NCBI GenBank assembly: GCA_016699465.1
Contig: CP064977.1
Coordinates: 542,503 to 606,502 of the forward strand
Reading direction: 5' to 3'
DNA from: Candidatus Campbellbacteria bacterium
Lineage (GTDB): Bacteria > Patescibacteriota > Minisyncoccia > Phycocordibacterales > EsbW-18
Length of the DNA: 64,000 nt
Shown: one piece after another, positions 2,983-19,410 of the stretch
Layout of the letters: the number at the start of each line of letters is the position of its first letter
How positions within the stretch are numbered: position 1 is the stretch's first letter
Made by a program: the position numbers and the translations under genes
The notes under the pieces: generated by a model
What the model saw: the letters and a program-made list of their open reading frames with translations, nothing else
What the model was told of the DNA's origin: nothing
Databases searched by the model: none

Positions 2983-3174
2983 TATATACTCATTCAAAAA
3001 AGTAAGGGCTTGAGAAAAGGAGAAAACTATGTTAATAATATGGGGACAACAAAAATACAAAACAGGTAACATAAAACACAAAATAAAAAAGTCAATGATT
3101 TTCACCACTTTTACCAACACCTAAGCTAAAACAACCACTAACTTTCAACCTCTAACCTCCCCACACCCACTACT

Positions 3175-3309: not shown

Positions 3310-3324
3310 GGCCGCTCTGCCTTC

Positions 3325-3654
3325 ATGCTTCCAAAAAACAAACGACTCGCCACACAACAGTTTGATACAGCCTTTTCAGCTGGACAAGTTATTCGTACGC
3401 CACATTTTCTTATCCGACACCATACTTCCCCACTCAAAAACCAGTGGGCGGTTGTTATTCCTAAAAAACACATTCGCACGGCAGCTGCTCGAAACACACT
3501 TCGAAGACAAATATATTCTGCAATTGAAATGCTTCTAAAAGAAAATAAATCTTTTACGGGTCACTACATTGTTATTCTTACAAAAAAAGAAACGCTATGT
3601 ATTGCAGAAATATATAATGAGATACATAGTGCAGTAACTAGACGCATGCTGTAA
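3325..3654 (+). CDS. rnpA: ribonuclease P protein component
   Basis: 109 aa basic protein immediately after rpmH and before yidC (conserved rpmH-rnpA-yidC synteny). RnpA-like length and charge. Confidence 0.8.
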   Translation: MLPKNKRLATQQFDTAFSAGQVIRTPHFLIRHHTSPLKNQWAVVIPKKHIRTAAARNTLRRQIYSAIEMLLKENKSFTGHYIVILTKKETLCIAEIYNEIHSAVTRRML

Positions 3655-3657
3655 AGC

Positions 3658-4404: not shown

Positions 4405-4430
4405 CAAAAACATATAACATGTAACAAAAA

Positions 4431-4463
4431 GGTCTCGCCCTCACGTGGGGGCGAGACCTTTTT
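4431..4463. terminator. bidirectional rho-independent terminator between yidC and the convergent minus-strand gene
   Basis: ggtctcgccc-tcacgtgg-gggcgagacc followed by ttttt, and T-run on the opposite strand as well. Confidence 0.6.
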
Positions 4464-4469
4464 AATTTC

Positions 4470-5705
4470 TTAATACGTTTGGAGAGTTAAATCAACGAGC
4501 CACAACGAACCATCTTTTTTATTTACAAAGGAAAGGTATGTTTCATCAGAACTTACGTGGAGATCAATGGCGTCAACCCCTTCAGGAACGTACTTTTTTG
4601 GATCAAGAACAAACTCAGAATTCTCTGTTGTTGTATTAATTTTCCAAATTTCATCAGAGAAAGAGATCACACCTTGATACCAATCATCAGGAATACTCCC
4701 CCGTACATTCGTAACAGGAATAGCACAATATACCACCGTTGTGTTTGTCCACGTGCATTTTTCAGGGAGGGTACTGATGTTTATGGGGGTTCGTTCACTG
4801 GTTTTTACATTATACAAGGAAAGTCGTGGAAGGGATTGTGCCAATGAGCCGAGAAGAATAAGAGAGCCGTCAGTGTTAGGAAGTGCCGTGAGGGCAACAA
4901 TACTGTTTGCAACGCGAGTAAATGTGCCTGTTTGTATGTTAAGTAAAAATCCATTTCCACTGGATTGTGCAGATGGTGCTGTGGTCATAAGAATAGATGA
5001 AGGGCCACTCCATGCGACTTGCCACTGTGAAAACGGGTGAGAGAATGCATTTTCGGTTACCCCCTTGTTTACCACATACCCGATACCACCAACATCAGTT
5101 TTCATAAGATAAAACGTTTCAGGAAGTGTTTTGTGAATTGAAAGTGTAGAAATATCTTTCGGAAGATACGAACCCGTTAGTCGAGATTCATTTGTTGGGT
5201 TCGTGCTTGATGCAAGTGTTCCAAGAAATGTTTCGATAGTATCTCCATCCCCAAGGTATCGAAGGGCAACCGTTAATCCATTGTTTCCCCACACCGCCTC
5301 GCGAATACGTGGAATGGTGGTATTTGATATACGAGTTTTTTGTCCAGTTGCTGTTGAGTAGTCAAAAATGTGTCCCGTTTCTCGCTCAACGAAGCGTAAA
5401 AATGTTTCTGTGGATGTTCCGAGCGTTGTTGTTGCAAAGGTTGAACCAGCGACTGCTTTTTCAGAAACAATGGTAACAAATTGTTTTTGTTGTTCACCAA
5501 TACCTGCAGGTTGTCCGTTGGTACTTGTTGCAATGGTGCCCGTCGTGGTTGTGTTTGAAGTGGTATCAAAAAGTCCAAACGGGTTGAATGTTTGTGAAGT
5601 GCCCGTTGCTGTGGACGAAGTATTTCTAGAAAAGAACCACCACATACTCACACCCAATAGAGCAAGAACAATGACAACAACAAGAATGATAAAGATTTTT
5701 TTCAT
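4470..5705 (-). CDS. secreted/membrane-anchored hypothetical protein (N-terminal signal/TM, Thr-rich linker)
   Basis: MKKIFIILVVVIVLALLGVSMWWFF signal-anchor then T/S-rich stretch. First gene of the long minus-strand cluster that contains the VirB4-like ATPase. Confidence 0.55.
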   Translation of the reverse strand: MKKIFIILVVVIVLALLGVSMWWFFSRNTSSTATGTSQTFNPFGLFDTTSNTTTTGTIATSTNGQPAGIGEQQKQFVTIVSEKAVAGSTFATTTLGTSTETFLRFVERETGHIFDYSTATGQKTRISNTTIPRIREAVWGNNGLTVALRYLGDGDTIETFLGTLASSTNPTNESRLTGSYLPKDISTLSIHKTLPETFYLMKTDVGGIGYVVNKGVTENAFSHPFSQWQVAWSGPSSILMTTAPSAQSSGNGFLLNIQTGTFTRVANSIVALTALPNTDGSLILLGSLAQSLPRLSLYNVKTSERTPINISTLPEKCTWTNTTVVYCAIPVTNVRGSIPDDWYQGVISFSDEIWKINTTTENSEFVLDPKKYVPEGVDAIDLHVSSDETYLSFVNKKDGSLWLVDLTLQTY

Positions 5706-5712
5706 ACAAGTC

Positions 5713-6612
5713 TTATAAAGACACCCCGTTAATTCGGCACTTTATTCCTAGACACGAATGCCAGTGAGGCCCAGTACCTGTGGGTTCGTCCCAAAAATAA
5801 CTGTCCCCCCATTTATAAACATGTCCTCCAACAGACGCCTCACCCTTATCTTCTTGGCTTTTTAAAAAAGCATCGAGTTGCATACTGTGCGCTAAATCTA
5901 CCACAGGTTGTCCTGGTCCGTGGGTTGTGTGTCCGCCCTCTGTCCCCCCGTTAATAATCAAATCCCCCCCGACTCGTTGTAATTCTTGAAGTCGACTTAT
6001 TGCTGAAGGGGGTAGATCTCCAACATTCGTACAACCTTGTGTTTGTCCGGCGGGGCAAGCGTCGTGATTTACGGTGATTCCAGGAAGTAGTGAGTTGCGG
6101 ACATTCGCCTCTTGTACGGGGTCGGTTGTGCCATTTCCCCCACTAGTTGGTGGTGTTACTCCAGTTCCACCAGTACCTCCCGCTGGTGCGGTAATTGTAT
6201 TTAATCTGTCAAAAAGACCAAAGTTAATAAGTTGTGGGTTGATAGTGTTGAGAATAATAACAGAACCAAATACGAGAATGAGACCACCTATAATGCTATA
6301 GAATGCTTTTTTTGCTTCTTCTTTTTTTCCAACAACATCTGACATCATGTAGATGACACCGTTGTAGACAAACATAAGAATGGCAAGCGTTACGGCAATT
6401 CCAAGACCAATTTTAAAAATGGTGTTGAGATATCCCGCCACCCCACCACCAGCTCCAGGTGTTACTGATGAGCCGAGTCCTGGGAGATCGCTAACAAGAA
6501 GTTTGTATGCAACTGGGGCCGCCGCGTGTGTAAAAAATATTGGTACGATATATAGAATAAAAAGTGCGACACATAATATGTTTTTTTTGGAGAATAGTGT
6601 CATATTATTCAA
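5713..6612 (-). CDS. membrane protein with pilin-like N-terminal region (signal + 2 TM) and Gly/Thr/Pro-rich linker to a Cys/His-containing C-terminal domain
   Basis: Hydrophobic segments LGIAVTLAILMFVYNGVIYMM and FYSIIGGLILVFGSVIILNTI resemble VirB2/TrbC-type topology. C-terminal ...GGHTTHGPGQPVVDLAHS...HWHSCLGIKC could be a metal-binding/hydrolase-like domain (speculative). Confidence 0.5.
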   Translation of the reverse strand: MNNMTLFSKKNILCVALFILYIVPIFFTHAAAPVAYKLLVSDLPGLGSSVTPGAGGGVAGYLNTIFKIGLGIAVTLAILMFVYNGVIYMMSDVVGKKEEAKKAFYSIIGGLILVFGSVIILNTINPQLINFGLFDRLNTITAPAGGTGGTGVTPPTSGGNGTTDPVQEANVRNSLLPGITVNHDACPAGQTQGCTNVGDLPPSAISRLQELQRVGGDLIINGGTEGGHTTHGPGQPVVDLAHSMQLDAFLKSQEDKGEASVGGHVYKWGDSYFWDEPTGTGPHWHSCLGIKCRINGVSL

Positions 6613-7333
6613 GGGTGATGGTTATACTACTTGATGCGCGTTGAAGAATTTCCGTAACGTGGTTGATTAAAAGTTGCAATTGTATTGTTCGTGGTTCGTC
6701 GCTTTGTATTGCAACACTTGCGCCGGTTGCGCCAGAAACTTTTTGTCCATTTGCGGTCCACGTGTAACTCAACGAACCCTCCTCACGAGCATGTGTTGAT
6801 GAAAAGTAAGGGTACGCCTCGATGATCATATCTTTTTCTGTTGTTGTAAAAGATGTTGGAAGTACGCGTTCGAGAGCAATACCTTCGAGCGGACGATTTT
6901 CATAAAATCGTATAATGGGATTTACTTTCTGCATTTTAACCATCCCGATCTCTTTTGTTTTTCCATTAGAAACTTCAACAACAATGAGGGGTACGTCACC
7001 AAATTGTGAACCTTCAAATGTAAATGACTGTTTACCAACTCCCGAAAGAGATCCTTGGGCCGTGCCATCACGCTTCCATTTATAGGTAAGCGTTGCAGGA
7101 TCACCCATAGAAGCAGGAGGAAGAGCGAGAACCGTTGTCTTGCCACCCACAGGATAGAGTGCCTTTCCTTTATAAAAGGGCGGAATATATGAATTAACCT
7201 CCCATATCATTTCAACTGTTGGCTTAATGAGGTTGGTTGAGACGTTTATTTGTGCGTTTGCGACGTTTCCGTACACAAATAGTTCACATACAAAGAGAAG
7301 GGTGAGAAGTATTATTTTTTGGAATACGCTCAT
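6605..7333 (-). CDS. secreted hypothetical protein (signal peptide)
   Basis: MSVFQKIILLTLLFVCELFVYGNVANAQ signal peptide. No family recognised. Confidence 0.55.
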   Translation of the reverse strand: MSVFQKIILLTLLFVCELFVYGNVANAQINVSTNLIKPTVEMIWEVNSYIPPFYKGKALYPVGGKTTVLALPPASMGDPATLTYKWKRDGTAQGSLSGVGKQSFTFEGSQFGDVPLIVVEVSNGKTKEIGMVKMQKVNPIIRFYENRPLEGIALERVLPTSFTTTEKDMIIEAYPYFSSTHAREEGSLSYTWTANGQKVSGATGASVAIQSDEPRTIQLQLLINHVTEILQRASSSITITLE

Positions 7334-7360
7334 ACGTATATACTATCACCCTTTTTTATT

Positions 7361-8110
7361 TTAAGCGGCTATTTTTTCCTCGTTTTCCACACCGCCAGAT
7401 GAAGGAGAGTAATCATTTAATGGGCCACTATTACTTGCGAGAATTTGGTTTGGGGCTGCTATTTCTTGATTAAAACCTTGTCGTTGAACTAGGTGTGGAC
7501 GATCTTGGACCCGTGTCGATCGCTGGGGATTTTGCGTTTGTTGAGGTGATAAGTTGTTTTGACGAACGGATTCGCGCGGGGTGATGTCTTTCATGGTTTG
7601 TCGACCAGCAAGTGTGGCCGACCCTCCGTTTGTTTGTCGCTCCTTCATTCTTGCAAGTCGCTCACGGGCGCGGGCCACTCGTTCTGGGTTTGCTTCTCGA
7701 CGAACTGTCTTATTTGCTGTGCGGGAAATATCTTTTTTAAGTTGGTCTTTGGGTATTTTTCCTGTTGCTAGTCCGGCCACCCCTATTCCTGTTTTGTCCT
7801 CAATATCAGTCAGTACAATCATAATAATTGTTCCTGTGGTAATAAGGGGAAGTGCACTCACAATCGGAATTGCTTCACCAATGTATTCCACAACAGTTGT
7901 TACAATTTTTTTGGGGCTTATGAATGATACGCCGAGCATTTTAAACCAGATGTAAAACGTGATACCAGCTCCACCAATAGCAAGAAATTGCCCAACGACA
8001 GGAATAATACTGATGAGATCAAATATAATGGCGGTTCCAATCAGTTTGTAACGAGTCACCGGATCGATTCGTCGTGGCTTTTTGTTTTCTTGAGAATCAT
8101 TTTCTGCCAT
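7361..8110 (-). CDS. integral membrane hypothetical protein with charged low-complexity C-terminus
   Basis: Several TM helices (IGTAIIFDLISIIPVVGQFLAIGGAGITFYIWF...) followed by an R/E/Q-rich tail. Confidence 0.5.
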   Translation of the reverse strand: MAENDSQENKKPRRIDPVTRYKLIGTAIIFDLISIIPVVGQFLAIGGAGITFYIWFKMLGVSFISPKKIVTTVVEYIGEAIPIVSALPLITTGTIIMIVLTDIEDKTGIGVAGLATGKIPKDQLKKDISRTANKTVRREANPERVARARERLARMKERQTNGGSATLAGRQTMKDITPRESVRQNNLSPQQTQNPQRSTRVQDRPHLVQRQGFNQEIAAPNQILASNSGPLNDYSPSSGGVENEEKIAA

Positions 8111-8117
8111 AGTGTAG

Positions 8118-10043
8118 TTACTCTATATTCTTTACGTCCATTCCTTGAGTGAGAAGTTCGTTTTGATGTTCTTCGGACCTAGATATTTTTTCTATAAGAG
8201 GTCCTTCATCGGGTACTTGTTGAGAAGTTTGGCGTGACTCTTTGAGCTCCTCGCGCGATTTTTTAAGTGCAAGAATTTGCGATGGGTCTGAGGTGATGAT
8301 TTGATCCTCTGTATATGATGCAATACTTTTTATTGCCACGTGCTTAAGACCTGCAAAGAAAATCCCTTCCCCGCGATCTGATTCAAGGAGTAAGAATTTT
8401 TCTTCATCAGTAAGATTGAATGTTTGTTGCACGAGATCAATGGATGACGGAGACTGCTTTAAAAGGATTTGAATAGATGAGTTGGTAATAATGGGAAGTC
8501 CATACGGAGAATGTAAAAAGTCGCCCACGTCTTGCGTGATGGTTGCAATACCAAGGAAATATTTTCGTCCACGCTTTGCAAGACCAAACAAGAGTGATGC
8601 TGTGTTCTCATCTTTCATCATAAGCCACGCCTCATCAACAACGAGAAGGCGTTTTTTAAGTTCTCGACGAACAGCACTCCAGATGTAGTGCGTAATCAAA
8701 TACATAGCAACAGGCTTAAGCTCGTCTTCCATATCGCGGACAGAAAAGACAATAAACTTCTTATTGATGTCTACGTTCGTTGCGTTATTGATGAAACCCG
8801 CCCACGTTCCTTTGGTGTACTTTGAAAGGCGTTGTACAAGTGACTCCCCTCCCTCCATGCCCGCAAGTACGAGTTCAAAATCAGAAAGAAGTGGCGGTTC
8901 GACTCCGGTGAAGTCGTGTTCACCAGTAATATCCTTGAGTGCATACACCTCGGTAATTGCGCGATCGATGATGGCATCTTCTTCTGGGGTAAGTCCTCCA
9001 AACATAATACGGAAAAGTCCGACGAGTGTAATAATGTTTGAACGAAGTACGTTTGCAGGTGTTTCGTCCTCACGGACAGGTGGCAAATCAAATGGATTGA
9101 TGTGGTGTTGAGACGTGAGAGAAATATCAAAATAGCGCCCACCCATTGCGCTTGCCATGATTTCATATTCACGTTCAGGGTCAATCACAATAACTTCTGT
9201 TTCAAACATAAGCGTACGCAAGATCTCGAGCTTTGTTGCGTAGCTTTTTCCAGCGCCGGCCGTGGCAAACATCACCGAGTTATAGTTTGGCATTGAAAAA
9301 CGATCGAAGAGAATAAGGCCTGAGTTGTGGCGGTTAACTCCGTACAAAATTCCTTTGTTTGATGAAAGATCAAATGATACAAATGGGAAAAAGCTCGAAA
9401 GTGGCGCGGTGTTGAGTTTGTTGTGGATACCAAGTTCGTCGGTGCCAATAGGAAGAATGCTTTTAAATCCTTGTTCTTGTTGAAAGAGTGCTGGTTTGAG
9501 ATAAATAAGACGAGATTCGAGAAGGGATCGAATCTCTGATTCAATTTTATCAAGGTCGTTTTCATTTTCTGAATAAATAGAAATGTAGAGCCCGACATCA
9601 AAAAGTTTTTCTGTTGCCTGTTGGAGTTGGTCGCGGAGTGATTCGAGGTTTTCGTAGGCACTATCAAGCATTGGGTCGCGCACAAGACCTTTTTCCTCGC
9701 GCATGTGAATTTGACTTTGTACTTCGGCAACACGTTTACGGAACTCTTTAAGGACTTGTGCGGTATCAACGGGAATAATGGAGAGTGAGAGATCAAATAT
9801 TTTATCCATATTGATAATTGGCGAGAGCCAGTTATCAGGAAGAAATCGTGGGTATGAAATAACAAAAAAGGTGCGCACTACACTGTCTCCCAAATTGAGC
9901 GCGCGCGGTGTTATCTTGAGCGCAGATGGTGCAATGACATCTTGGAGCTCAAGTACACCCGCCTCATAAATATCTTTTGGAAGCACAGGGGTAATCTGAA
10001 CGGTATCTTTCTTTTTTCCTTTGATGATATCAAAAAGTCCCAT
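8118..10043 (-). CDS. VirB4/TrbE/TraC-like type IV secretion (conjugation) ATPase
   Basis: 641 aa. Walker A FATAGAGKSYATK, Walker B LLVVDEAW, length and motif spacing of VirB4-family ATPases (Gram-positive PrgJ/TcpF-like size). Confidence 0.8.
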   Translation of the reverse strand: MGLFDIIKGKKKDTVQITPVLPKDIYEAGVLELQDVIAPSALKITPRALNLGDSVVRTFFVISYPRFLPDNWLSPIINMDKIFDLSLSIIPVDTAQVLKEFRKRVAEVQSQIHMREEKGLVRDPMLDSAYENLESLRDQLQQATEKLFDVGLYISIYSENENDLDKIESEIRSLLESRLIYLKPALFQQEQGFKSILPIGTDELGIHNKLNTAPLSSFFPFVSFDLSSNKGILYGVNRHNSGLILFDRFSMPNYNSVMFATAGAGKSYATKLEILRTLMFETEVIVIDPEREYEIMASAMGGRYFDISLTSQHHINPFDLPPVREDETPANVLRSNIITLVGLFRIMFGGLTPEEDAIIDRAITEVYALKDITGEHDFTGVEPPLLSDFELVLAGMEGGESLVQRLSKYTKGTWAGFINNATNVDINKKFIVFSVRDMEDELKPVAMYLITHYIWSAVRRELKKRLLVVDEAWLMMKDENTASLLFGLAKRGRKYFLGIATITQDVGDFLHSPYGLPIITNSSIQILLKQSPSSIDLVQQTFNLTDEEKFLLLESDRGEGIFFAGLKHVAIKSIASYTEDQIITSDPSQILALKKSREELKESRQTSQQVPDEGPLIEKISRSEEHQNELLTQGMDVKNIE

Positions 10044-10046
10044 ATA

Positions 10047-10712
10047 TTATTTTTGAAGTCCTTGAAGCACGATTGGTTTTTCTGAATCTCCAGGATTAAA
10101 CATTTTGTAATACAATTCAACGAGTTCTTCGGTGCCAAGTTGTCTGGCGCGAATACCTGTGCGCGCAAGGTTTTGTGTGACTACCCCAATTCGTTGCTCG
10201 AGTTGACTGCGGCTTTCTTCAAACGCGGTGAGTTTTTGTTCTGAATCAGCGGCTTTGTTTTTTGTACCAAACAGGCCACTCAGTGCTCCGCGAATACCGC
10301 CCTTTGATGCTGAAATAATTGCGCCAGTGTATGGTACGACAATATAAAAATATTTTGTCATGATACTGACGTTTTCAGTGAACCCTTTTACGAAATCGAT
10401 ATATTCGCGGGTTTGCATTTTAATGAGGTCAATCGTTTGCTCCTTCATTTGCTCTTCAAGAAGTGCAATGTAGGGGCGAATATCAAGTCGGCGAGATTGC
10501 ACTAGTATTTGAATGGGAAACTCAATAGAGTTGAGCATGTTTTGAAACTGCATAATGATGGCGGATTGCTCATCTTCTGATTTGAGAGCGAAGTTAAGTG
10601 ATGATGCGAGAAGTACTGAACGAAGAGAGCCGTCTTTGAGAATAACGACACCACTACGAATTTCTTTGATAGGCACGAATGCTTGTGTTGATGCAGCTTT
10701 AGGTTGAGCCAT
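10047..10712 (-). CDS. hypothetical protein, T4SS-cluster associated
   Basis: 221 aa soluble protein directly upstream of the VirB4-like gene, stop/start 4 nt apart. No family recognised. Confidence 0.5.
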   Translation of the reverse strand: MAQPKAASTQAFVPIKEIRSGVVILKDGSLRSVLLASSLNFALKSEDEQSAIIMQFQNMLNSIEFPIQILVQSRRLDIRPYIALLEEQMKEQTIDLIKMQTREYIDFVKGFTENVSIMTKYFYIVVPYTGAIISASKGGIRGALSGLFGTKNKAADSEQKLTAFEESRSQLEQRIGVVTQNLARTGIRARQLGTEELVELYYKMFNPGDSEKPIVLQGLQK

Positions 10713-10754
10713 GATATTTCTATTGTAGCCGAGAAACTGCGTCTCACCAATGGG

Positions 10755-11174
10755 CTAGCGTTGCTCTTGGTCTCCACTCAGAGCGTCGTGTACATCCAAA
10801 CTCCACGCGAGGTCACGTAATTTACTATCTGAAATGCGAGGAACGGTAATACCGGGATCTTGCTCGACTATTTCTTTTTCAGCACTTGCTTTTTTTGCTT
10901 CTTTTTTCCAAATGTAGAGTTTATGTGCGAGAGAGTACTTGAATGCTGACTCAATAACGGCAATAAAAGGCTTGTTGTTTATTTTGTAAAATGAAAGAGC
11001 AACACCAAGTGCAATGACAAGCACAATAAGAGGAAGTGCAATAAGGAGCGGTGCAAAAATCCACAGAACCGCAGAAAGCCCTACGCTACCAGCAAGATAG
11101 ATGAACTGTTTAAAAGTAAGTGGTCCAAATACTTTGTCTTCTATGTCGATAAATTGTGGAACTTCGAAACGCAT
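10755..11174 (-). CDS. PrgI/VirB3-like small membrane protein
   Basis: Start at internal Met: MRFEVPQFIDIEDKVFGPLTFKQFIYLAGSVGL... then a two-TM hairpin. This N-terminal motif and the position next to a VirB4-like ATPase are characteristic of PrgI-family proteins. Confidence 0.55.
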   Translation of the reverse strand: MRFEVPQFIDIEDKVFGPLTFKQFIYLAGSVGLSAVLWIFAPLLIALPLIVLVIALGVALSFYKINNKPFIAVIESAFKYSLAHKLYIWKKEAKKASAEKEIVEQDPGITVPRISDSKLRDLAWSLDVHDALSGDQEQR

Positions 11175-11214
11175 GGTGTTTAAAATTACAATAACAAATA
11201 TCAAATGACAAATA

Positions 11215-11619
11215 TCAAAGATTTTTTGATCGTGTTCTTTTAATAATTGATGAGAATATTCTAACCAATTCCTGTGCTTCAGTATACACCATTACACACC
11301 CATCTCGTTTTTCAGGATTAGTTACGTGCAACATATGCGCCCAGTACATTGTTTCTTTTGCTTCTTTTCGCGTAACGGAAAGTTTGTGAATAAAATCTTT
11401 TTGAGATTCCCCACAATCGGCCTCCATGTAATTTGCCCCAATACTTGTTCCTGAACGAACGATCTGCATCAACAGGGGTTTATTTATGTATGTTGGTTGA
11501 ATAGTTTTGACAAACTGTATAATGGTTTTTCCAAACCTTGATGTGCGTTGAGTTAGTGTTGGTATTTTGTAATCAGGCATACCACGTACCTTATACGGTC
11601 GAGATAAAATCCTAATCAA
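11215..11619 (-). CDS. four-helix-bundle protein (23S rRNA intervening-sequence protein family)
   Basis: ...LMQIVRSGTSIGANYMEADCGESQKDFIHKLSVTRKEAKETMYWAHML matches the conserved core of this family. Start codon uncertain. Confidence 0.7.
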   Translation of the reverse strand: MIRILSRPYKVRGMPDYKIPTLTQRTSRFGKTIIQFVKTIQPTYINKPLLMQIVRSGTSIGANYMEADCGESQKDFIHKLSVTRKEAKETMYWAHMLHVTNPEKRDGCVMVYTEAQELVRIFSSIIKRTRSKNL

Positions 11620-11664
11620 TTCAAAATTGATATTTGATATTGGATATTTGTTATTGCACCTCCC

Positions 11665-12291
11665 CTACTCCACCGGCTCTCTGTATGGGTCAATTACCTT
11701 TTGCGATACCGCGGGGCCTTCTTTAATCGTGGTTGCAGATGCTGGAATACGAAAACTTTGTTCAAGTTTTGTTTGTGCGCTATCTTTTGGAAGTGTGTGT
11801 GTTATGGATGCTGATGGTACAGAAGATGGTGTTGGTGTGGCGTGTGGTTGCCGTGGTGCGGGTTGTACGCTTGGTTGAACGATAGGGTGTGGTGTTGCCT
11901 GGATGATTGGTTGGGTTGTTGCTGTGGTGGAACTTTCTACAGATGGCGCATGTTCTCCGGTTGGGAACATCTTCATTAACGATTCTCGTACAGGGTGGAA
12001 AATTTCATTTTCCGTATCAATAACGAGCCTCTCGACAACACTGAGTGAAATGTGTAGTCGAGAAGTAAGATTTGAAACGAATGCATCTGGGTGTTCTAAT
12101 CCCAATAACACAAGCATTACTTCGTCCTCAAACATTCCCCCATCGTCAACACGAAGGCCCTCTTTTGTGATGATTTTTCGGACGCGTCCAAGCAAATCGA
12201 GTTCTGCAAAAGCTTTTCGAAGTGACTCGGGTATTTCGGTAAGTCTTTTTTTGATGATGTCGCGGGATTCTTGGTCCATATTTTTATACAC
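11665..12291 (-). CDS. hypothetical protein with Pro/Thr/Gln-rich C-terminal tail
   Basis: 208 aa. Low-complexity tail ...TQPIIQATPHPIVQPSVQPAPRQPHATPTPSSVP. Confidence 0.5.
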   Translation of the reverse strand: MYKNMDQESRDIIKKRLTEIPESLRKAFAELDLLGRVRKIITKEGLRVDDGGMFEDEVMLVLLGLEHPDAFVSNLTSRLHISLSVVERLVIDTENEIFHPVRESLMKMFPTGEHAPSVESSTTATTQPIIQATPHPIVQPSVQPAPRQPHATPTPSSVPSASITHTLPKDSAQTKLEQSFRIPASATTIKEGPAVSQKVIDPYREPVE

Positions 12292-12306
12292 TACACTTAA
12301 CGTTGA

Positions 12307-14643
12307 CTATGGTTTAAAACCAGCCGGTGCTTTTGGTGGTGGAGTTTCTGCGATTATTTCTGGTTCTTTGTTTTGCTCCATTATTTTTTCAATCTCTTTT
12401 GCAATATTCTCTGATGGTTTTTTCTCGCTTCCTGCACGTAATTTGTCCCCCGCAGTTCTCGTTGCAGAAGTGAGTCCACCTGTATATGCCTCACCAATTT
12501 TTGTCTTAGTCAGTTCATTTGCTGATTTGACTGCGTCGGTAATTTTCTTTGCAGATGATTTTAGTTCAATAAAGTTTATTATGTTTTTATCCTTGCCTTC
12601 TTTGTATCCCCTGAGGTTTGTTTCCGCTCTCTCTTTCTGGGCTTCCAGTTGAGCACGTTTTTCAGGGGTGAGGTTGATATTTTCCAACGCCTTTTCAGTC
12701 TTTTTAATGTATGCATTTTGTGCATCAATAACTGCTGAAGTAGTACTTATCAACTTCCTCTGTTCGTCTGTAAGCGCAGCGCTTGTTCGTGCAAGCTCTG
12801 TGCGTGTTTGTGAGCGACCACCCCTCATTTCAGTGAGTATATCTTGTGCCTCTCTGAGTTTTGTTTCATGCTCTGCTTGTTTATCGGTGCCCAATCCTGC
12901 TCTAAGGTTATCTTGTGCCTCTCGCACCTTTGCCTCTTGTGATGCAACCGCTTGATTCTTTCCGTACATCTCTGCTCTCTCTTGAATTCTCTTTGCACCT
13001 GCTTCACGGGAACCAACGAGACCACCCTTATTACCAACCTTTCCTAAATCAGCACCTGCCATGTCAGCGAGCCCTCCAGCAAGTCGTGTTCCGCGGGCAT
13101 CAAACGTTCCTTTTTGTGCCAAGTTTCCGGTGTATGAAAAGGTTTTGCCGATTCCACGTACCCATTTGCTGTTTGACTCAGTCATTTTGCCAACCGTAGC
13201 AGAGTTTGCTAATCTAGCACCCGCTCGTCCAAGAGAGTTGCGCGCCAAGAATGCTGTTCCTCCAAACACCGCACCACCAGCTAGTGTTGAGCCGAGTTTT
13301 GCGACACCCTTTCCAGCATCACCTGAAACAGATTTTGCGATAACAAGCGCAGAGATGAGGAGATAGATGACGATGAAGTATTTGATAAGATCGACGGCGG
13401 TGGTGCTAAGAAAACCTGTGAGGCCTGTACCGGTGGATGCAATAATAATAGACGGATTATTAAAGTTTGGATCTTTAAGGATTTCAAATACAACTAAAAG
13501 TAACGCAAAAAAGATAGGTGCAAAAAATGCCTGCCCCCAGAGTGTGTCCCACCATTTCCCTGCTTGTGATTTGAGTTGCGGTAAAAGTTCACCAATGAAT
13601 GCAATCGGGGACGTAATTATTAAAATAAGAAAAATGACCAGTCGTCCCAAGAGCATAAATGCCATAACAAGAAACATAAACATGGCAATGAGAACAATAA
13701 TAATTGCCATAATTACATCAGTTAATATACTTTTGTCAGCACTTTTTATATTAGCTTCATTTGCGATACCGTTGTCTGAGAGTTCTCCTTTCATGAACTT
13801 CATAACACCCAACTTGTCCATAAATGCACCAGAAAGACCCTGGCTTTCTTCTACTCCCAAAACTGTGCTCTTTGTATCGTATTTTTGTGTGGCGGTATAG
13901 AGTTCAAGGGTGAGGATGTTTGATGTATCAATCACAATTTTTGTGAACAACATACTGAAGTTGATCAGTAGTGCGGCGAGAATAATTTTGGGAATGAGTT
14001 TTGTATTAAAACCAGAGGACGACCACGATCCAAGAATGGTATTGATACCCACAAAGAGGAGTGCAAAGACAAATACAATATTGACGAGGTCTCGGATAAT
14101 CCCCCAACCAGCATTTATTCCAGCGCCGATCCCCCCTTGGGTGTCCATAAATGCACCCATGTGAACTATGGAGAATGAAATACTAGAATCCAAAATATAG
14201 GCAGCTATAGCAAGAAGCCATCCCAATATCTCAAGAACGATATAGAGCATCCACGCAACCAAAACTCGTGGCATGGTTATGATGTCCCAAAAATTTGCTC
14301 CACCGCCTGTTGTTGACATTGCGCCTTTTGCCTCACCGCCAATGCAGGTACTAGATGAGTTTTGCCACGTTCCACCTTTGGCACGACATTCTTCAGGAGT
14401 GCCTGGCGCAGGTGTTGTTTCTCCAGTTGGAGGGTTGGCCGGGGTTGGAGTAGGTGCAGGTGTTGTTTCATTTACTGTTGAGGTTTCGGCTCGTGCAAGG
14501 TGTGTATTGGTTGGTAGTGGAACAGATACAAGAAGAACAACCACAAGAAGAAGTGGCAGTGCCCAATGTATTCTTTTTTTAATCCCCACGAACATTGTTA
14601 CTTTTATGGTACTACATACTCTGCGTTCTGATGTACGCAACAC
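12307..14643 (-). CDS. VirB6/TrbL-like polytopic membrane protein with long coiled-coil/charged C-terminal extension
   Basis: 778 aa. Signal peptide, Pro/Thr linker, at least 6 TM segments, then a Lys/Glu/Ala-rich hydrophilic tail. This architecture is typical of T4SS inner-membrane channel proteins. Assignment by architecture only. Confidence 0.5.
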   Translation of the reverse strand: MLRTSERRVCSTIKVTMFVGIKKRIHWALPLLLVVVLLVSVPLPTNTHLARAETSTVNETTPAPTPTPANPPTGETTPAPGTPEECRAKGGTWQNSSSTCIGGEAKGAMSTTGGGANFWDIITMPRVLVAWMLYIVLEILGWLLAIAAYILDSSISFSIVHMGAFMDTQGGIGAGINAGWGIIRDLVNIVFVFALLFVGINTILGSWSSSGFNTKLIPKIILAALLINFSMLFTKIVIDTSNILTLELYTATQKYDTKSTVLGVEESQGLSGAFMDKLGVMKFMKGELSDNGIANEANIKSADKSILTDVIMAIIIVLIAMFMFLVMAFMLLGRLVIFLILIITSPIAFIGELLPQLKSQAGKWWDTLWGQAFFAPIFFALLLVVFEILKDPNFNNPSIIIASTGTGLTGFLSTTAVDLIKYFIVIYLLISALVIAKSVSGDAGKGVAKLGSTLAGGAVFGGTAFLARNSLGRAGARLANSATVGKMTESNSKWVRGIGKTFSYTGNLAQKGTFDARGTRLAGGLADMAGADLGKVGNKGGLVGSREAGAKRIQERAEMYGKNQAVASQEAKVREAQDNLRAGLGTDKQAEHETKLREAQDILTEMRGGRSQTRTELARTSAALTDEQRKLISTTSAVIDAQNAYIKKTEKALENINLTPEKRAQLEAQKERAETNLRGYKEGKDKNIINFIELKSSAKKITDAVKSANELTKTKIGEAYTGGLTSATRTAGDKLRAGSEKKPSENIAKEIEKIMEQNKEPEIIAETPPPKAPAGFKP

Positions 14644-14649
14644 TGTGTA

Positions 14650-16398
14650 TTATGGTTGAATTCCTTCGCCGACATACGTCATTTCAACATTCAGATTTGA
14701 GAATTCCCATCCAGGTCCAAGTTTTACTTGGTATTCTCCGTTATCATCAGTTACTCCTCCAATGCTAATGTGGAAACTTTGGTTGTTGTTTTCAATAACA
14801 TCAGCGGTTATTCCATCCCATGCGCTCGCAATAATATCGTTCCCTGACTTTATATCTACACCAGCAACTTTTTCAAGTGTGTCGTAGGTATATTCTATAT
14901 GAAGCGTATCACCTACTGCAGGTTCGAATGAAGTTTGCGTTTCTTTGCATGCGCCCGCCAGGTGTGCTTGTGTGACAAGTTTACTTCCATCGGCTCCTTG
15001 AATTTTTAATCCGACTTCTCCGATGAGGTTGTTCCACCACTTATCTCCACGCGCAAGATAAAAGAGTTCGTGGAAGTTGTAACTACCGTCTATGTTGGTA
15101 AACTCTCCAACTTTGACATCAAAACCAACAATTACCTTTGTGTATTTTGTGTCCGTACTCTCATCGCCAAAGTAATAATCACGAACAGTGTCGTCTGCGG
15201 TTGTGGTGAAGAACGTTCCGTTTTCTGAATACGAGATTGGGTCCCCTGCTCCGGATCCGTTGCCATCTTCTGCGGTTGCCTGACATGAGGCACCAATACC
15301 TCCGGTACCATCAGGAATTTCTGTTGCGGAAGGAAGGTTTGCTGGGAATTTGTCGTTAGCGAAGTCGGCTGGGTCGTATCCTGCAAGTCCTTTTTCGCCC
15401 AAGAGAACGTCACGAATGAGGTATGCCATGATGGCGGTAATCATTTCGTTGAGTTCGTCTGCAAACGAGAGACGGTCCATTTGCAAACCTGTTGATTTTG
15501 CAACTTGTTCTTGAATGTATGAGCCAGGAGTCACCGTCCGTTCCGGGTCACAACTTACAGTTCCTTGAGGTGGGCCTTCTTGCGTTTCGTCATATGGTGC
15601 TGGTGGCCCCATACCATCCGCAGGTGTTAGATAACAATCTTGGACTTTTTTAGATAAAAATCCACTTCCAAGAGAAATATCTTTTGTTTGTTCTCCAGCG
15701 GCGTTGATGAGTCGTATCTTTATTTCCATATCAGACTCAAGGTATGCACCATACGGGTTGTTGTATGGGTTGCTTACCATTTCTACCCACCCGTTCCATC
15801 CTCCGGCGTTAAAATCACCGTTCATAAAGTCATCAATGTTGCTCACCGCTCCTGTGAGAGAACACTGAGATGTTATTCGCCCGCTGTTTTGTTGGTATGA
15901 CCGCATCAGTGCAAGTTGAATCTGTGCTTTAAATGGTGAACAGAGGAGGGGGGCTTTTTCGAGAAGGAGTTGTCCCATAACGGCATCTGCGGTTTGAAGC
16001 ATGTGCTGACTAACATTTGTGACGAATACAGGATTTCCTTCAAAACCACTCTGTGCCCAGACGGTAATACTCTTTATCATGTCTTCAATAATAGTATTGA
16101 CCACTTGATAGAGAATGCAGTCGATGGCTTTCTTAACACCGGTTGAGGCCTCTGATCCAGGAAGTGTTGCTGCCGGCATAAGTGCGACTCCTGCAGAAAT
16201 ATATTTCATTGCGGTTGCGACAACAACACATGAGGCAGCTCCGGCGACAAAACCTTTTCCAAGCTCACCAAGTTGAATTCCACCGGCGGCCTCTAGCCGT
16301 TGTATTTTAAGGCCAGTTGAAAGAGAGAGACTGATGGGCATCACCACAAAAAGTGTGATAAGGAAGAGTGTGAGTAGTTTTGTACAAAAAGAGTTCAT
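14650..16398 (-). CDS. membrane-anchored secreted hypothetical protein (N-terminal TM, large extracytoplasmic domain)
   Basis: 582 aa. N-terminal TM LLTLFLITLFVVMPISLSL. No catalytic motif recognised. Confidence 0.5.
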   Translation of the reverse strand: MNSFCTKLLTLFLITLFVVMPISLSLSTGLKIQRLEAAGGIQLGELGKGFVAGAASCVVVATAMKYISAGVALMPAATLPGSEASTGVKKAIDCILYQVVNTIIEDMIKSITVWAQSGFEGNPVFVTNVSQHMLQTADAVMGQLLLEKAPLLCSPFKAQIQLALMRSYQQNSGRITSQCSLTGAVSNIDDFMNGDFNAGGWNGWVEMVSNPYNNPYGAYLESDMEIKIRLINAAGEQTKDISLGSGFLSKKVQDCYLTPADGMGPPAPYDETQEGPPQGTVSCDPERTVTPGSYIQEQVAKSTGLQMDRLSFADELNEMITAIMAYLIRDVLLGEKGLAGYDPADFANDKFPANLPSATEIPDGTGGIGASCQATAEDGNGSGAGDPISYSENGTFFTTTADDTVRDYYFGDESTDTKYTKVIVGFDVKVGEFTNIDGSYNFHELFYLARGDKWWNNLIGEVGLKIQGADGSKLVTQAHLAGACKETQTSFEPAVGDTLHIEYTYDTLEKVAGVDIKSGNDIIASAWDGITADVIENNNQSFHISIGGVTDDNGEYQVKLGPGWEFSNLNVEMTYVGEGIQP

Positions 16399-16407
16399 GA
16401 AAGAGTG

Positions 16408-17421
16408 TTAGTACATGGTAACAAGTAAAAAGCCGTCTTCCAACTTTGTGTAGGTAACCCTTTTTGAAACAAGGAATGATTTAATGTCGCGCAATTTTGA
16501 TGTTGTTGCCTCAATGTTTCCTTGATATTTTTGTAATACAGGAAGAACAGTCACTGAATCTGCCGAAAGATTCTCAAGGCGTTCAAGTATAAGTGTGTTT
16601 GTTTGTATGCCGTTCATGAAAGCAATATATGTTGGAGCAATCTCTTTTGGTACGGGAATAGAGCGAAGTCTGGCGAGTACGATTTTGTAGTGTTCAATAA
16701 CAGGTGCAAGTTTTTTGAGAGATGATACCGCGCCGGTATTTACAAATTCGGCAAGTGCAAAAAATTCATTATTTTGTTCAGACGAGGTGACCTTAAGTGC
16801 TCCAGCAACGGCATTTCCATACGCATGTAGTTGCTCGGGGGTTGCTTGAGAAATAATCGTAAGGTCGCTCAACTGGACCATTTTTTGATCGAGATTTGCT
16901 GGTGTAACGATGGCGTTGCCTAAAAGTGCTGCTACTTGATTTGCGTCATCGGTAGTAAGTGGAACTCCGGCGTTTTTAAAGGCAATAACTTGTTCAAAAA
17001 GTGCTCGAGAAAGGGCGTCGGTTTTGGTCAGGTTTTTATTTTGTTCAAAAAAGGAAAATAAACTACTTGTTGCCGAACTCACGATTTCCTCCTTTGTTTT
17101 TTCTGCGGTTGCCTTTTGATTTTGTACATAGGCAAAATCACTAACACCATCCCCATTTGAATCGCTCTTGGTAGGATCGGTTCCCCAGAGTGACTCCTCC
17201 CAATCTTTAAGGCCATCTGCATCAGAATCTGTTTCACTAAACGTCGTGCGAGTAGCCGTTGAGTTATTTTTGGGTGTGATGGTTGATTCCGAAGTAGGCG
17301 GGTGTGTTTTTAGGACAATTGTGGCAACAATAATCGCAATGGCAATAATACCAATAGCAAAAACGCGTTTGCCTGGTTTGTGTAACGTTAATTCTGATTC
17401 CATACAATGAAAAGTAAACAC
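16408..17421 (-). CDS. membrane-anchored hypothetical protein with Asp-rich calcium-binding-like repeat
   Basis: 337 aa. TM near N-terminus. SETDSDADGLKDWEESLWGTDPTKSDSNGDGVSDF resembles thrombospondin-type-3 / DxDxDG calcium-binding repeats. Confidence 0.5.
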   Translation of the reverse strand: MFTFHCMESELTLHKPGKRVFAIGIIAIAIIVATIVLKTHPPTSESTITPKNNSTATRTTFSETDSDADGLKDWEESLWGTDPTKSDSNGDGVSDFAYVQNQKATAEKTKEEIVSSATSSLFSFFEQNKNLTKTDALSRALFEQVIAFKNAGVPLTTDDANQVAALLGNAIVTPANLDQKMVQLSDLTIISQATPEQLHAYGNAVAGALKVTSSEQNNEFFALAEFVNTGAVSSLKKLAPVIEHYKIVLARLRSIPVPKEIAPTYIAFMNGIQTNTLILERLENLSADSVTVLPVLQKYQGNIEATTSKLRDIKSFLVSKRVTYTKLEDGFLLVTMY

Positions 17422-17426
17422 ACCAC

Positions 17427-18638
17427 GTGTTGTCGTTCTCCATTCTACGCTATACTATGCGTATGTCTATGCAAAAAAATATTTTCCTGTGTATAGGTAT
17501 GTGCGTCGGTATTTTTTTGACACCACTTTTTTCTAATGCATCAACGGAACTATTTTTTCGTAACTTAACCATTGGTGATTCCGGCTCTGACGTGGTGCAG
17601 TTACAGGTTTTTTTAAATCAAAATTCGGCAACTAAGATTTTGGGAACAGGACCAGGGTCTCCAGGAAAAGAAACGACATATTATGGCGCACTGACAGCCG
17701 ATGCGGTACGGCGATACCAAGAACTGCATTCCCAAGAAATCCTTGTTCCATATGGCTTAAAATCGGGAACGGGTGTTTTTGGTGCGGGAACACGCGCACT
17801 TGTGGGGCTTTCTGTTGGTCTTGGGCAAGGTAATGTGTCCATGGGTGTATCTCCACAACAAACAACCCAAACTAAGGATTCTGGTACGGGTGGTACGAGT
17901 ACATTTAGTGGCATGGTCAAGCCGGTTGTTGTGGATACAGCGGTAGATCCTGACAAAAAGACGAAGGAGCTATTTACCAGCATTATGACAAAAGCTAAGC
18001 CGTCTATTATTTCTCAAAAACAAATAGATGAGGCAAAAAAAGACACGCAGGTTATTTCTGAAACAAAAATAACCCCACCAACGACGCAGGCAATACTAGA
18101 TCTTGAACAAAAACAAAATGAAAAAAATGCAGAACTGTTCATCACACTTCTTCAAGAAGGTGGATATCTAAAAGATATGGATGCAAAAGTACAAGATGCG
18201 GTTAAAAAACAGATTCGTGAAAACTCCAAGAAGGATATTATGTCTCTGGTGAAAGCTACTGAAGATGTTGCGTGGAAAATTCCAGAGGTGCAAAAACCAA
18301 CGACGCTTTTGGCTGGTTTTGGGGATTCTCTACTGAGTATGTTTCGACCAAAACAAGCTGATGCTTTTGCTATACCGATTTTTGGAGGGTATGTATACTA
18401 CCGTTTTTTGTGTACCGCAAGCGGAACGTGGGCAATTGTTGTTGGGTTACCTATGCCGGCATGGCTTGGGTATACGTACGTTCAAAAGTTTGCCTACTGG
18501 CAGATGCCTTTTGCCCTTATAACTGCGGGGTGGTATACGCCAGGAGTTCAGACGTGTTACTTCCAAGCGGGCCCGTACACAGTGTTGATTCCAACGATGG
18601 GAGTGATGACCTTCTTTATGGGGTCTTCATTACCGTAG
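17427..18638 (+). CDS. peptidoglycan-binding domain protein (PG_binding_1-like N-terminal domain), possible cell-wall remodelling factor for the secretion cluster
   Basis: 403 aa. Signal peptide. ...GDSGSDVVQLQVFLNQNSATKILGTGPGSPGKETTYYGALTADAVRRYQ is a typical peptidoglycan-binding domain. C-terminal Cys/Trp-rich domain of unknown function. Confidence 0.55.
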   Translation: MLSFSILRYTMRMSMQKNIFLCIGMCVGIFLTPLFSNASTELFFRNLTIGDSGSDVVQLQVFLNQNSATKILGTGPGSPGKETTYYGALTADAVRRYQELHSQEILVPYGLKSGTGVFGAGTRALVGLSVGLGQGNVSMGVSPQQTTQTKDSGTGGTSTFSGMVKPVVVDTAVDPDKKTKELFTSIMTKAKPSIISQKQIDEAKKDTQVISETKITPPTTQAILDLEQKQNEKNAELFITLLQEGGYLKDMDAKVQDAVKKQIRENSKKDIMSLVKATEDVAWKIPEVQKPTTLLAGFGDSLLSMFRPKQADAFAIPIFGGYVYYRFLCTASGTWAIVVGLPMPAWLGYTYVQKFAYWQMPFALITAGWYTPGVQTCYFQAGPYTVLIPTMGVMTFFMGSSLP

Positions 18639-19410
18639 TCAATGCAACCCAATCCTCGGCGGATAGTTCTTCTGCCCGAGCATTTGGAGAAAAACCACGC
18701 TCGATTAAGAAACGCGAAAGCGTTTCTTTTGGTATGAGGCTCGCAAGATTGGGAACGAGTTGTTTTCGTTTGTGGGCAAATCCTGTTTTAACGAGGGTAA
18801 AGAAGGTTGTTTCGTCGACAGGTGAAAGGTGCGATGTGATGTTGGTGATGAGAAGAATTGCGGAATCAACTTTTGGCGCAGGAGAAAAATATTTTTTTGA
18901 AACATTCATGACAAGCTTCGGTGTGCCAAAGACTTTAACTGACATCGAAAGAATACTCTCCTTTCCATCGTGTGCGACAATACGTTGTGCAACTTCTTTT
19001 TGTACAAGCACTACGATGCGTTCAGGTTTGTGTGTTCCTGCTAAAAATAATTCGAGAATTTCTCCCGTGATGTAGTACGGAATGTTTGCAATTAACTTGT
19101 AACGTGAATCATCTAGCGCGTAATGAGAAAAATCAAACGTGCGAATGTCATCTCGAACAATCTGTAATTGTTTTGATGTAATTTCTGGAGCAAATATTTC
19201 CTGCAGGTATGTAACAAGGTCGGCATCTTTTTCAATCGCGAGCACACGACATCCTGTATCAAGGAGTGCTCGCGTCAGGGCTCCCTTCCCTGGTCCAATT
19301 TCAAGCACAGTGTCTGTTGCGGATAGTTCACCTACCTCAATAATTTTATTGAGTGCAACTTTTGATTTTAAAAAGTTTTGCCCTAGTTCTTTTTTTGCAC
19401 GATGTGTCAT
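18616..19410 (-). CDS. rsmA: 16S rRNA (adenine1518/1519-N6)-dimethyltransferase
   Basis: MTHRAKKELGQNFL...VLEIGPGKGALT SAM-binding motif. 264 aa. Confidence 0.85.
   Translation of the reverse strand: MTHRAKKELGQNFLKSKVALNKIIEVGELSATDTVLEIGPGKGALTRALLDTGCRVLAIEKDADLVTYLQEIFAPEITSKQLQIVRDDIRTFDFSHYALDDSRYKLIANIPYYITGEILELFLAGTHKPERIVVLVQKEVAQRIVAHDGKESILSMSVKVFGTPKLVMNVSKKYFSPAPKVDSAILLITNITSHLSPVDETTFFTLVKTGFAHKRKQLVPNLASLIPKETLSRFLIERGFSPNARAEELSAEDWVALTTVMKTP

Follow-up and report, generated by a model that had tools for sequence, protein, structure and literature searches.

We analysed a 64,000-nucleotide stretch of the genome of a Candidatus Campbellbacteria bacterium (Patescibacteriota; contig CP064977.1, positions 542,503 to 606,502), hereafter the window, with emphasis on a cluster of 13 genes beside dnaA that an original prediction had likened to a Gram-positive-type type IV secretion system (T4SS). 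Calls and translations of the open reading frames (ORFs) bore out the predicted layout, in that positions 4470-18638 carry 12 minus-strand ORFs in series, tightly packed at spacings of -8 to 45 nt, and one divergent plus-strand ORF. The minus-strand products measure, in coordinate order, 411, 299, 242, 249, 641, 221, 149, 134, 208, 778, 582 and 337 aa and the plus-strand product measures 403 aa; the database entries identical to two of the cluster proteins are IPJ70_03090 and IPJ70_03130. The edges of the cluster are sharp. On the left, a palindromic terminator-like hairpin with a 17-bp stem (4426-4463) divides it from yidC and marks the 3' end of both the operon and yidC, and the flank beyond (258-4404) comprises three plus-strand genes (yidC, rnpA and rpmH) and two minus-strand genes (dnaA and dnaN). 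On the right, the 403-aa gene is convergent with ksgA, which is followed by a UvrD/PcrA helicase gene. The GC content of the cluster (0.41-0.455) lies inside the range of the window (0.35-0.58 in 2-kb bins). For comparison, at least 552 related loci encoding VirB4 relatives were present in a one-genome-per-species collection, and the best 80 of these (L001-L080) were compared with the window.

The motor of the system was recognised from the 641-aa ORF (8118-10043, minus strand), which matched the NCBIfam model NF045971 (conju_CD1110, a VirB4-like conjugal transfer ATPase; 362 bits, cutoff 325) and the Pfam family P-loop_TraG (PF19044) at 2.9e-23, and in whose translation a Walker A (GAGKS) and a Walker B motif (LLVVDEAW) can be read. 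We assign it to the VirB4-family ATPases of the monoderm MPF-FATA lineage; it represents the C-terminal two-thirds of VirB4, including the P-loop domain. The VirB4 ATPase with Walker motifs that had been predicted stands, with the correction that VirB4 is divided here between two ORFs. The 221-aa ORF next to it (10047-10712, minus strand) matched VirB4 models over their N-terminal ~100-130 positions alone (VirB4_plasma at 7.1e-14; CD1110 at positions 2-101) and, weakly, TrsD (0.0014). Between this ORF and virB4 lie an in-frame TAA, one codon and then an ATG, and in each of 79 related loci the TrsD-like part and the ATPase are likewise encoded by two ORFs. Because the TAA precedes an ATG of virB4's own and the split is kept in every one of those loci, the 221-aa ORF is regarded as a genuine detached N-domain; a recoded stop, a frameshift or a sequencing error in VirB4 is ruled out on the same grounds. 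TrsD has been reported as the most abundant T4SS component in Patescibacteria (PMC12102498; here and below, published accounts are cited from the portions consulted). The 149-aa ORF that follows in coordinate order (10755-11204, minus strand) had been read as a PrgI/VirB3-like small membrane protein, and this was confirmed by PF12666 (PrgI; 39.3 bits, cutoff 27), with one strong transmembrane (TM) segment in the protein. PrgI was found in 77 of the 80 loci at a median identity of 51%, and its true start is likely the ATG of 'MRFEVPQ' at about 11174. BLASTP of the window PrgI against clostridial PrgI was not significant and hence the assignment rests on the Pfam hidden Markov model (HMM).

The 778-aa product (12307-14643, minus strand) is likely an extended VirB6-like polytopic membrane protein, as judged by transitive homology, topology and position. 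Its hydropathy scan gave an N-terminal hydrophobic segment and about 6-7 TM segments within residues 120-445, and its coiled C-terminal tail spans about 310 aa, of which 31% are charged. Six of 44 syntenic orthologues matched PF04610 (TrbL; best 1.9e-7) and two of 105 database homologues (P0060 and P0117) passed the Pfam TrbL threshold at about 28.6 bits (cutoff 25.9). The alignment of P0060 with the window protein covers residues 132-674 of the latter (1e-54) and puts the TrbL region of P0060 on approximately residues 212-433. The profile of the family gave only coiled-coil noise from the tail when searched against PDB. Of the original claim of a VirB6/TrbL-like protein with a long charged tail, the topology and the tail were upheld, and the TrbL relationship is supported indirectly, through orthologues, a direct HMM match not having been obtained.

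The 299-aa product (5713-6612, minus strand) is a VirB2-type T4SS pilin, although its own pass of the Pfam model T4SS_pilin (PF18895) is marginal (27.2 bits, cutoff 26.6). Precomputed PF18895 annotations are carried by 14 of the 24 other pilin homologues listed, and rescanned relatives reach up to 42 bits on this model. The AlphaFold2 (AF2) model contains a signal helix, a helical hairpin (H58-90/H94-124) and a confidently predicted C-domain (pLDDT ~85-98), so that the protein can be described as a signal peptide with a helical hairpin at residues ~1-125 and an orphan C-domain of 140 aa at residues ~160-299. To our knowledge, Gram-positive T4SSs normally have no VirB2-type pilin.

The C-domain belongs to a large family. 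When 1.84 billion cluster representatives (50% identity) were searched with its profile, 2261 members were recovered at E ≤ 0.001, 1328 of them at E ≤ 1e-10, and almost all lie at the C-terminus of proteins of ~270-320 aa. Among ten atypical members of unusually long or short length, six carry a T4SS_pilin domain (five above the Pfam threshold) and in none of the ten did the C-domain match any Pfam family. Residues C29, C37, G66, E68, D82, E119 and H126 (domain numbering) are invariant in the family and H71, H74 and H128 nearly so, with a residue pattern of His-x7-Asp ... Glu-x(2-6)-His-x-His. The zinc site of LAS enzymes has the pattern H-x6-D ... E-x2-H. Related pilins carry VanY, M15_3/Hedgehog (HH_signal) or SLT domains in the position of the C-domain, and the likeness of the C-domain to the LAS zinc peptidases (VanY/VanX/M15 and the Hedgehog N-domain) consists of the residue pattern together with these true VanY, M15_3 and HH_signal domains that replace it in homologous pilins. 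Profiles of 15 and of 35 C-domain sequences gave no significant match in PDB, hhalign against a VanY domain was negative and Foldseek found no match in PDB. Membership of the LAS, VanY, M15 or M23 families is consequently unsupported by sequence or fold and remains a motif-level idea. The pilin half of the predicted 'pilin-like protein with a possible hydrolase-like C-domain' is therefore retained, and the hydrolase nature was not demonstrated. We propose, with more doubt than conviction, that the domain may be an undescribed metallo-hydrolase that cuts the peptidoglycan of the host or of the cell itself, either while exposed on the T4SS pilus or after release from it.

The remaining genes encode envelope proteins for the most part. 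TM or signal segments were located by hydropathy scan on seven proteins outside the core, in agreement with the several secreted or anchored proteins originally proposed. The 582-aa membrane-anchored protein (14650-16398, minus strand), found in 55 of the 80 loci, had no Pfam or PDB-sequence match, and in its AF2 model the N half is poor and a C-domain at residues 380-578 is confident. Foldseek matched this C-terminal beta-sandwich to legume lectins, concanavalin A and pentraxins (E ~2e-7, probability 1.0). Relatives of the protein replace the lectin-like module by Ig-like, F5/8-type-C (discoidin) or SdrD_B modules, and such apparent swapping is a pattern typical of surface recognition proteins; for the conserved Cys-containing N-module no Pfam or PDB relative was found. 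The 411-aa protein (4470-5705, minus strand) has a single N-terminal TM anchor and a Thr/Ser-rich linker, and its ectodomain is a probable beta-propeller, the profile matching the TolB propeller weakly (E 0.0065-0.06). It was found in 60 of the 80 loci, always as the final gene before yidC.

The 242-aa protein (6605-7333, minus strand; 74 of 80 loci) starts with a hydrophobic segment and appears to be a secreted or anchored beta-rich protein, possibly with Ig-like repeats, the matches of its profile to PDB being faint and Ig-like only (Hoc, E 0.014). The 249-aa protein (7361-8110, minus strand) is predicted to form a hairpin of two TM segments with a long disordered polar tail, and was found directly after virB4 in 31 of the 80 loci; the 208-aa protein (11665-12291, minus strand) has no TM segment and a Pro/Thr/Ser-rich C-terminal half, is predicted to be cytoplasmic, and was found between virB6 and prgI in 30 loci. 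Neither had a family match in Pfam or NCBIfam. The first gene of the operon encodes the 337-aa protein (16408-17421, minus strand; 35 of 80 loci), which has one TM segment as its anchor and a predicted helical ectodomain with a DxDxDG Ca-binding-like motif; its profile matched the Bap Ca-binding region at 3e-7 and EF-hands at ~1e-2. Its start is likely Met7, at about 17403, a residue that is nearly invariant among the relatives. The 242-aa and 337-aa families were also considered as VirB8 candidates and rejected, as their profiles gave only Ig-like noise and Ca-binding motifs. The divergent 403-aa protein (17427-18638, plus strand) matched PG_binding_1 (PF01471; 27.7 bits, cutoff 23), as expected from the predicted peptidoglycan-binding function, and its gene is present in 15 of the 80 loci, always in an identical position and orientation; its association with the T4SS is plausible but weaker. 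A protein with LysM and Peptidase_M23 domains is encoded at 22271-23287 (plus strand), 3 kb outside the cluster and beyond ksgA and uvrD, and it might be a wall-remodelling partner of the T4SS. M23 and LysM domains have been noted in VirB1-like proteins of Patescibacteria (PMC12102498).

All of the 80 loci compared are from metagenome-assembled genomes (MAGs) of Patescibacteria, under labels such as Parcubacteria, Paceibacteria, Campbellbacteria and Wolfebacteria, and their VirB4s are 72-83% identical to that of the window. Outside the phylum, the nearest VirB4s come from plasmids of Firmicutes and Actinobacteria; they are ATPases of the CD1110 family and share 28-37% identity with that of the window. 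This gap in identity is consistent with a place of the window VirB4 in the monophyletic Patescibacteria clade. The gene order uvrD-ksgA-(PG-binding)-337-582-778-208-PrgI-TrsD-VirB4-249-242-pilin-411, then yidC-rnpA-rpmH, then dnaA-dnaN, recurs with the same orientations in practically every related locus that is long enough to show it. Median identity across the loci drops from the engine to the surface, from 75% for VirB4, 59% for TrsD and 51% for PrgI to 27-35% for the surface proteins. Since the gene order and the housekeeping flanks recur across the 80 loci, the cluster is taken to be a vertically inherited core locus and not the remnant of an integrative and conjugative element (ICE) or plasmid. 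No relaxase, VirD4/TcpA-type coupling protein or VirB11 was detected within the window by Pfam scans of selected ORFs of at least 150 aa (overlapping shadow ORFs were skipped), which agrees with the absence noted originally and, together with the fixed synteny, with the suggestion that the locus is not a conjugative element.

Systems of this type have been described in Patescibacteria. Transposon sequencing of the saccharibacterium Southlakia epibionticum showed that an unusual Gram-positive-like T4SS (SEML1_0006-0019), which includes pilins but no recognisable coupling protein or relaxase, is essential (Wang et al. 2023, PMC10633639); epibiotic growth requires both its T4SS genes and its pilins (PMC10633639, PMC12857230). 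A survey of 3,035 Patescibacteria genomes reported VirB4 in 2,417 and only 109 relaxases, described the VirB4s as a monophyletic clade nested in MPF-FATA, and recorded TrsD, PrgI/VirB3, VirB6 and VirB2-like pilins near virB4 and, in Paceibacteria, a location of virB4 close to dnaA, dnaN, ksgA, rnpA and rpmH (Quinonero-Coronel et al. 2025, PMC12102498). A 2025 review of T4SSs counts the Patescibacteria systems as a recognised new branch (PMC12857230), and a 2024 perspective calls their function 'completely unknown' and raises effector delivery and nucleotide uptake (PMC11665869). In a relative that feeds on host RNA, tubular structures that are possibly T4SS pili have been reported at the parasite-host interface (bioRxiv 10.64898/2026.06.21.733656).

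The window shares with the Patescibacteria clade an MPF-FATA VirB4, a separate TrsD-like protein, PrgI/VirB3 and a VirB2-like pilin near virB4 (PMC12102498), its likely VirB6 counterpart being the 778-aa protein, as judged via orthologues. It is likewise chromosomal, without a relaxase or type IV coupling protein (T4CP) in the cluster, and lies beside dnaA, dnaN, ksgA, rnpA and rpmH. In contrast to the pilin arrays of 2-11 reported for Saccharimonadia, the window has a single pilin gene fused to the 140-aa orphan domain, and whereas Southlakia has a peptidase/lysozyme gene immediately downstream of virB4 (PMC10633639), the window has none there and the M23 and LysM gene lies outside the cluster. 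The lectin, propeller, Ig-like and Ca-binding accessories were not found named in the consulted portions of PMC12102498 and PMC10633639.

Among monoderm plasmids, the CTn2/CD1110-type MPF-FATA system of Clostridium botulinum pCDC3875 has the order VirD4-...-VirB6(CD1112)-PrgI-x-VirB4-x-SLT hydrolase, with which the core of the window is colinear. However, pCDC3875 has an adjacent VirD4 (CD1115) and a MOBP relaxase, neither of which occurs nearby in the window; its VirB4 is full-length (797 aa) and not split; its VirB6 has 260 aa, compared with 778 aa in the window, which is three times longer; and it has a large SLT hydrolase and no pilin, whereas the window has a VirB2-type pilin at a fixed chromosomal site. 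A detached TrsD-like VirB4 N-domain is also found in pGO1-type MPF-FATA T4SSs (PMC12102498). Helicobacter pylori ComB, the crenarchaeal Ced system, Bordetella Ptl and Brucella VirB are VirB4-powered and non-conjugative and have no coupling protein (PMC12102498, PMC12857230, PMC11665869); ComB serves DNA uptake, Ced DNA import, and Ptl and VirB protein export. These systems belong to diderm or archaeal envelopes and have other accessory sets, and their sequence tie to the window is the generic VirB4 P-loop (CedB), so that the likeness is one of functional analogy and not of membership.

Taken as a whole, the cluster is very probably the core chromosomal T4SS of the Paceibacteria/Parcubacteria group of Patescibacteria (the candidate phyla radiation, CPR) and would serve as a host-interaction apparatus. 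One operon codes for an inner-membrane engine homologous to those of monoderms (MPF-FATA, CD1110/CTn2-like), a pilin and five to six lineage-specific envelope proteins, where the engine comprises VirB4, its detached TrsD-like N-domain, PrgI/VirB3 and the likely VirB6. The Gram-positive-type T4SS of the original prediction is upheld by the HMM matches, the CD1110-type relatives of VirB4 in monoderms and the published description of the Patescibacteria T4SS. Contact-dependent interaction with a host cell is the function that we infer. In the proposed mechanism, VirB4 and TrsD would sit on PrgI and VirB6 at the membrane and would power the extraction and polymerisation of the Sec-exported pilin, which would form a short pilus or a conduit through the cell's own wall. 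The lectin-domain, propeller, Ig-like, Ca-binding and PG-binding proteins would attach and position the pilus on the host envelope, where the metal-site-like C-domain of the pilin may cut peptidoglycan. The apparatus would then move macromolecules between epibiont and host in the service of an obligately host-dependent life, and not of conjugation.

Several observations weigh against this interpretation. The pilin passes the T4SS_pilin threshold only barely and its C-domain could be linked to no enzyme family by Pfam, PDB sequences, Foldseek or hhalign. The 778-aa protein itself had no relevant match in Pfam or NCBIfam, and hhalign of its family profile against a single clostridial VirB6 (CD1112) was negative. 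Neither a VirB8-like nor a VirB1-like component was recognised among the cluster proteins, and the role given to the accessory proteins is deduced from their co-localisation only. A distal VirD4-like gene is likely to exist elsewhere in the genome, because homologues have been reported in most Patescibacteria genomes (PMC12102498), and a relaxase could also lie there. Essentiality of the T4SS has been shown in Saccharibacteria only (Southlakia).

The direction of transport, effector export or import of host material, is not decided by the sequence, and this in itself tells against reading the apparatus as an import machine, that is, a T4CP-less T4SS which takes up host nucleic acids or macromolecules, after the manner of ComB or Ced, and so supplies nucleotides that the cell cannot make. 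We regard import as possible though rather unlikely. The lack of a T4CP or relaxase near the locus would suit it, the T4SS has been proposed as a route of nucleotide acquisition (PMC11665869), and feeding on host RNA has been reported in a lineage in which VirB4 is conserved (bioRxiv 10.64898/2026.06.21.733656). The window is also rich in RNA-degrading enzymes (PNPase, RNase Y and an NYN-domain protein), but these nucleases are ordinary housekeeping genes; VirB4 matched the CedB DNA-import model at 1.3e-7, but this partial match is far below the cutoff and spans only ~70 residues of the shared P-loop; and the cluster has no ComEC-like or DNA-binding component. The converse, an export machine by which effector proteins or wall-degrading enzymes would reach the surface or the interior of the host cell, is considered just as possible and likewise rather unlikely. 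Effector delivery has been speculated upon in the literature (PMC10633639, PMC11665869), and the wall hydrolase domains (VanY, M15 or SLT) of related pilin fusions, the invariant Glu/His/Asp/His set of the pilin C-domain and the nearby M23 and LysM peptidase would all be consistent with it. However, a T4CP that could recruit substrates from the cytoplasm was not found in the window, candidate effectors were not identified either, and the hydrolase activity of the C-domain is putative, the comparisons with known families being negative. An organelle for adhesion only, in which a VirB2-type pilus and lectin-like adhesins would attach the cell to its host without translocation, is improbable. It would account for the pilin, for the lectin, Ig-like or propeller features of several surface proteins and for the translocation-specific ATPases VirD4 and VirB11 not being found in the window, but Patescibacteria already attach by type IV pili (PMC12102498, PMC12857230) and the conserved, extended VirB6-like channel protein favours a conduit.

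Two further explanations concern the identity of the locus, and both are effectively excluded. That the cluster is an active ICE or the remnant of one, with a Gram-positive-type T4SS, could be argued from the conjugative or mobilizable monoderm plasmids that carry the closest non-patescibacterial VirB4s and from a tyrosine recombinase gene at 37486-38412. This recombinase is the nearest one found and is 19 kb off, beyond ksgA, uvrD and other housekeeping genes; a repeat search found no direct repeats flanking the cluster, the window has no relaxase or T4CP, the cluster GC is like that of the host genome, and the same flanks and gene order are kept across the 80 loci. Only a very slight chance is left to this explanation. 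Still less credible is a type IV pilus, Tad or Com apparatus misread as a T4SS, the case which would have overturned the original prediction. Membrane proteins and a pilin-like protein are indeed encoded in the cluster, and type IV pilus and competence genes abound in Patescibacteria (PMC10633639, PMC12857230), but the ATPase is of the VirB4 family and not GspE, PilB or TadA, the pilin matches T4SS_pilin/VirB2 and not type IV prepilins, PrgI is present, and the window scans revealed no GspE/PilB-type ATPase, type IV prepilin features, secretin, PilC/TadB or prepilin peptidase.

The setting of the operon relative to the replication origin was also considered. The cumulative GC skew has its minimum at ~2-4 kb and climbs across the cluster, and for this reason the locus is considered origin-proximal and transcribed toward the origin. 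The entire T4SS operon (4470-17421) is on the strand opposite the positive GC skew, with transcription toward dnaA, and this orientation relative to dnaA is constant in all related loci; its transcription would be head-on to replication if the origin is at dnaA. The predicted position beside dnaA/oriC holds as regards the dnaA/dnaN flank and the skew minimum, and a DnaA-box cluster was not demonstrated: two boxes with one mismatch lie in the dnaA-dnaN spacer and the count over the window is barely above chance. The longest dnaA ORF (1594-3120, minus strand) encodes 508 aa from a GTG start with a hydrophobic N-terminal extension of ~46 aa that relatives (median 457 aa) do not have, and translation probably begins at the ATG of 'MTRHQKP...' near 2985; the dnaA-rpmH spacer would then be ~190 bp. 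Upstream of the first operon gene, the best sigma-70-like promoter match (TAGACA-16-TAGAAT; 17442-17469, minus strand) agrees with 10 of 12 consensus positions. It is a consensus match and suggestive at best, as the region has no more promoter-like sites than expected from shuffled sequence.

One gene of the cluster is not part of the T4SS. The 134-aa gene (11215-11619, minus strand) encodes a four-helix-bundle protein ('23S rRNA IVS protein'; TIGR02436 at 76.9 bits, PF05635 at 48 bits) and is an insertion unrelated to secretion. It lies in a cassette (11189-11656, minus strand) inside the T4SS operon, between the 208-aa gene and prgI, with inverted repeats of 30 nt on either side of it (11189-11218 and 11627-11656; 90% complementary). 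Besides the window, one of the 80 loci (L009, a Wolfebacteria MAG) has the gene, at the same site and likewise bordered by inverted repeats, with the core CAAATGTCAAATGACAAA; the other 79 are without it. The cassette looks like a small element of the intervening sequence (IVS) type, and its long stem might be an RNase III site. A diversity-generating retroelement, of which a four-helix-bundle gene of the Avd-like family could have been a mark, was rejected, as the scans gave no reverse transcriptase and no template/variable repeat pair is nearby.

Other features of the window were recorded in the same searches. AT-rich repeats of ~30 nt and of the type (C)AAAT(A/G)TCAAAT occur mostly at gene boundaries or between genes (11190-11221, 21568-21599, 23497-23528, 25181-25212, 27013-27042, 28717-28746, 28803-28834 and 36090-36119), with a further copy inside an ORF (34029-34058), and could be promoter, terminator or regulator sites. 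A tandem duplication at 38439-41047, directly downstream of the tyrosine recombinase gene, has a spacing of 1484-1486 nt and at least three 300-nt stretches that are 100% identical between the copies. Its ORFs (447, 193 and 601 aa) had no Pfam match, and it could be a real recent event in an integrated element or an assembly artefact. A high-GC islet at 32000-35600 (GC 0.51-0.62, against ~0.43-0.47 elsewhere) adjoins the NYN-domain gene (35521-36075) and is possibly foreign DNA. It has internal repeats (33381-33486 and 34462-34567, at 95%) and GC-rich hairpins (35031-35074 and 35466-35509), and between 32.0 and 32.9 kb no ORF exceeds 107 aa and the ORFs overlap on both strands. Pfam scans of its two longest ORFs and the flanking NYN gene gave nothing beyond NYN, and an rRNA or non-coding RNA was rejected, with no Rfam match even at E ≤ 1. 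Inverted repeats at 47359-47533 and 50707-50882, ~3.2-3.4 kb apart, comprise one of 120 nt at 79% complementarity and one of 66 nt at 91%, and span two tRNA-Gly genes with their flanks (GCC, 47449-47520, minus strand; UCC, 50720-50791, plus strand).

The T4SS of Patescibacteria has already been described in papers of 2023-2025, and the locus reported here is a clean and complete Paceibacteria example of it, matching the published Paceibacteria description feature by feature (PMC12102498), with nothing categorically new. The orphan pilin domain, the modular lectin-type protein, the rigid synteny transcribed toward dnaA and the insertion flanked by inverted repeats were not found in the consulted portions of the published accounts, and an enzyme borne on the pilin was not found described for any T4SS in the literature as consulted. 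Patescibacteria account for a substantial part of the diversity of bacteria and live at the expense of other microbes. The T4SS is the leading candidate for the machine by which they draw resources from these, being essential in the one species tested and near-universal in the phylum. The locus yields parts that can be tested, namely the catalytic-looking pilin domain, the lectin-like surface protein and the conserved gene order on the origin side. The species-variable C-terminal module of the 582-aa protein may determine host specificity. If the pilin C-domain is indeed a hydrolase, then together with this swappable lectin-type module the Paceibacteria T4SS would be a feeding device that breaches the host wall with an enzyme built into its pilin.

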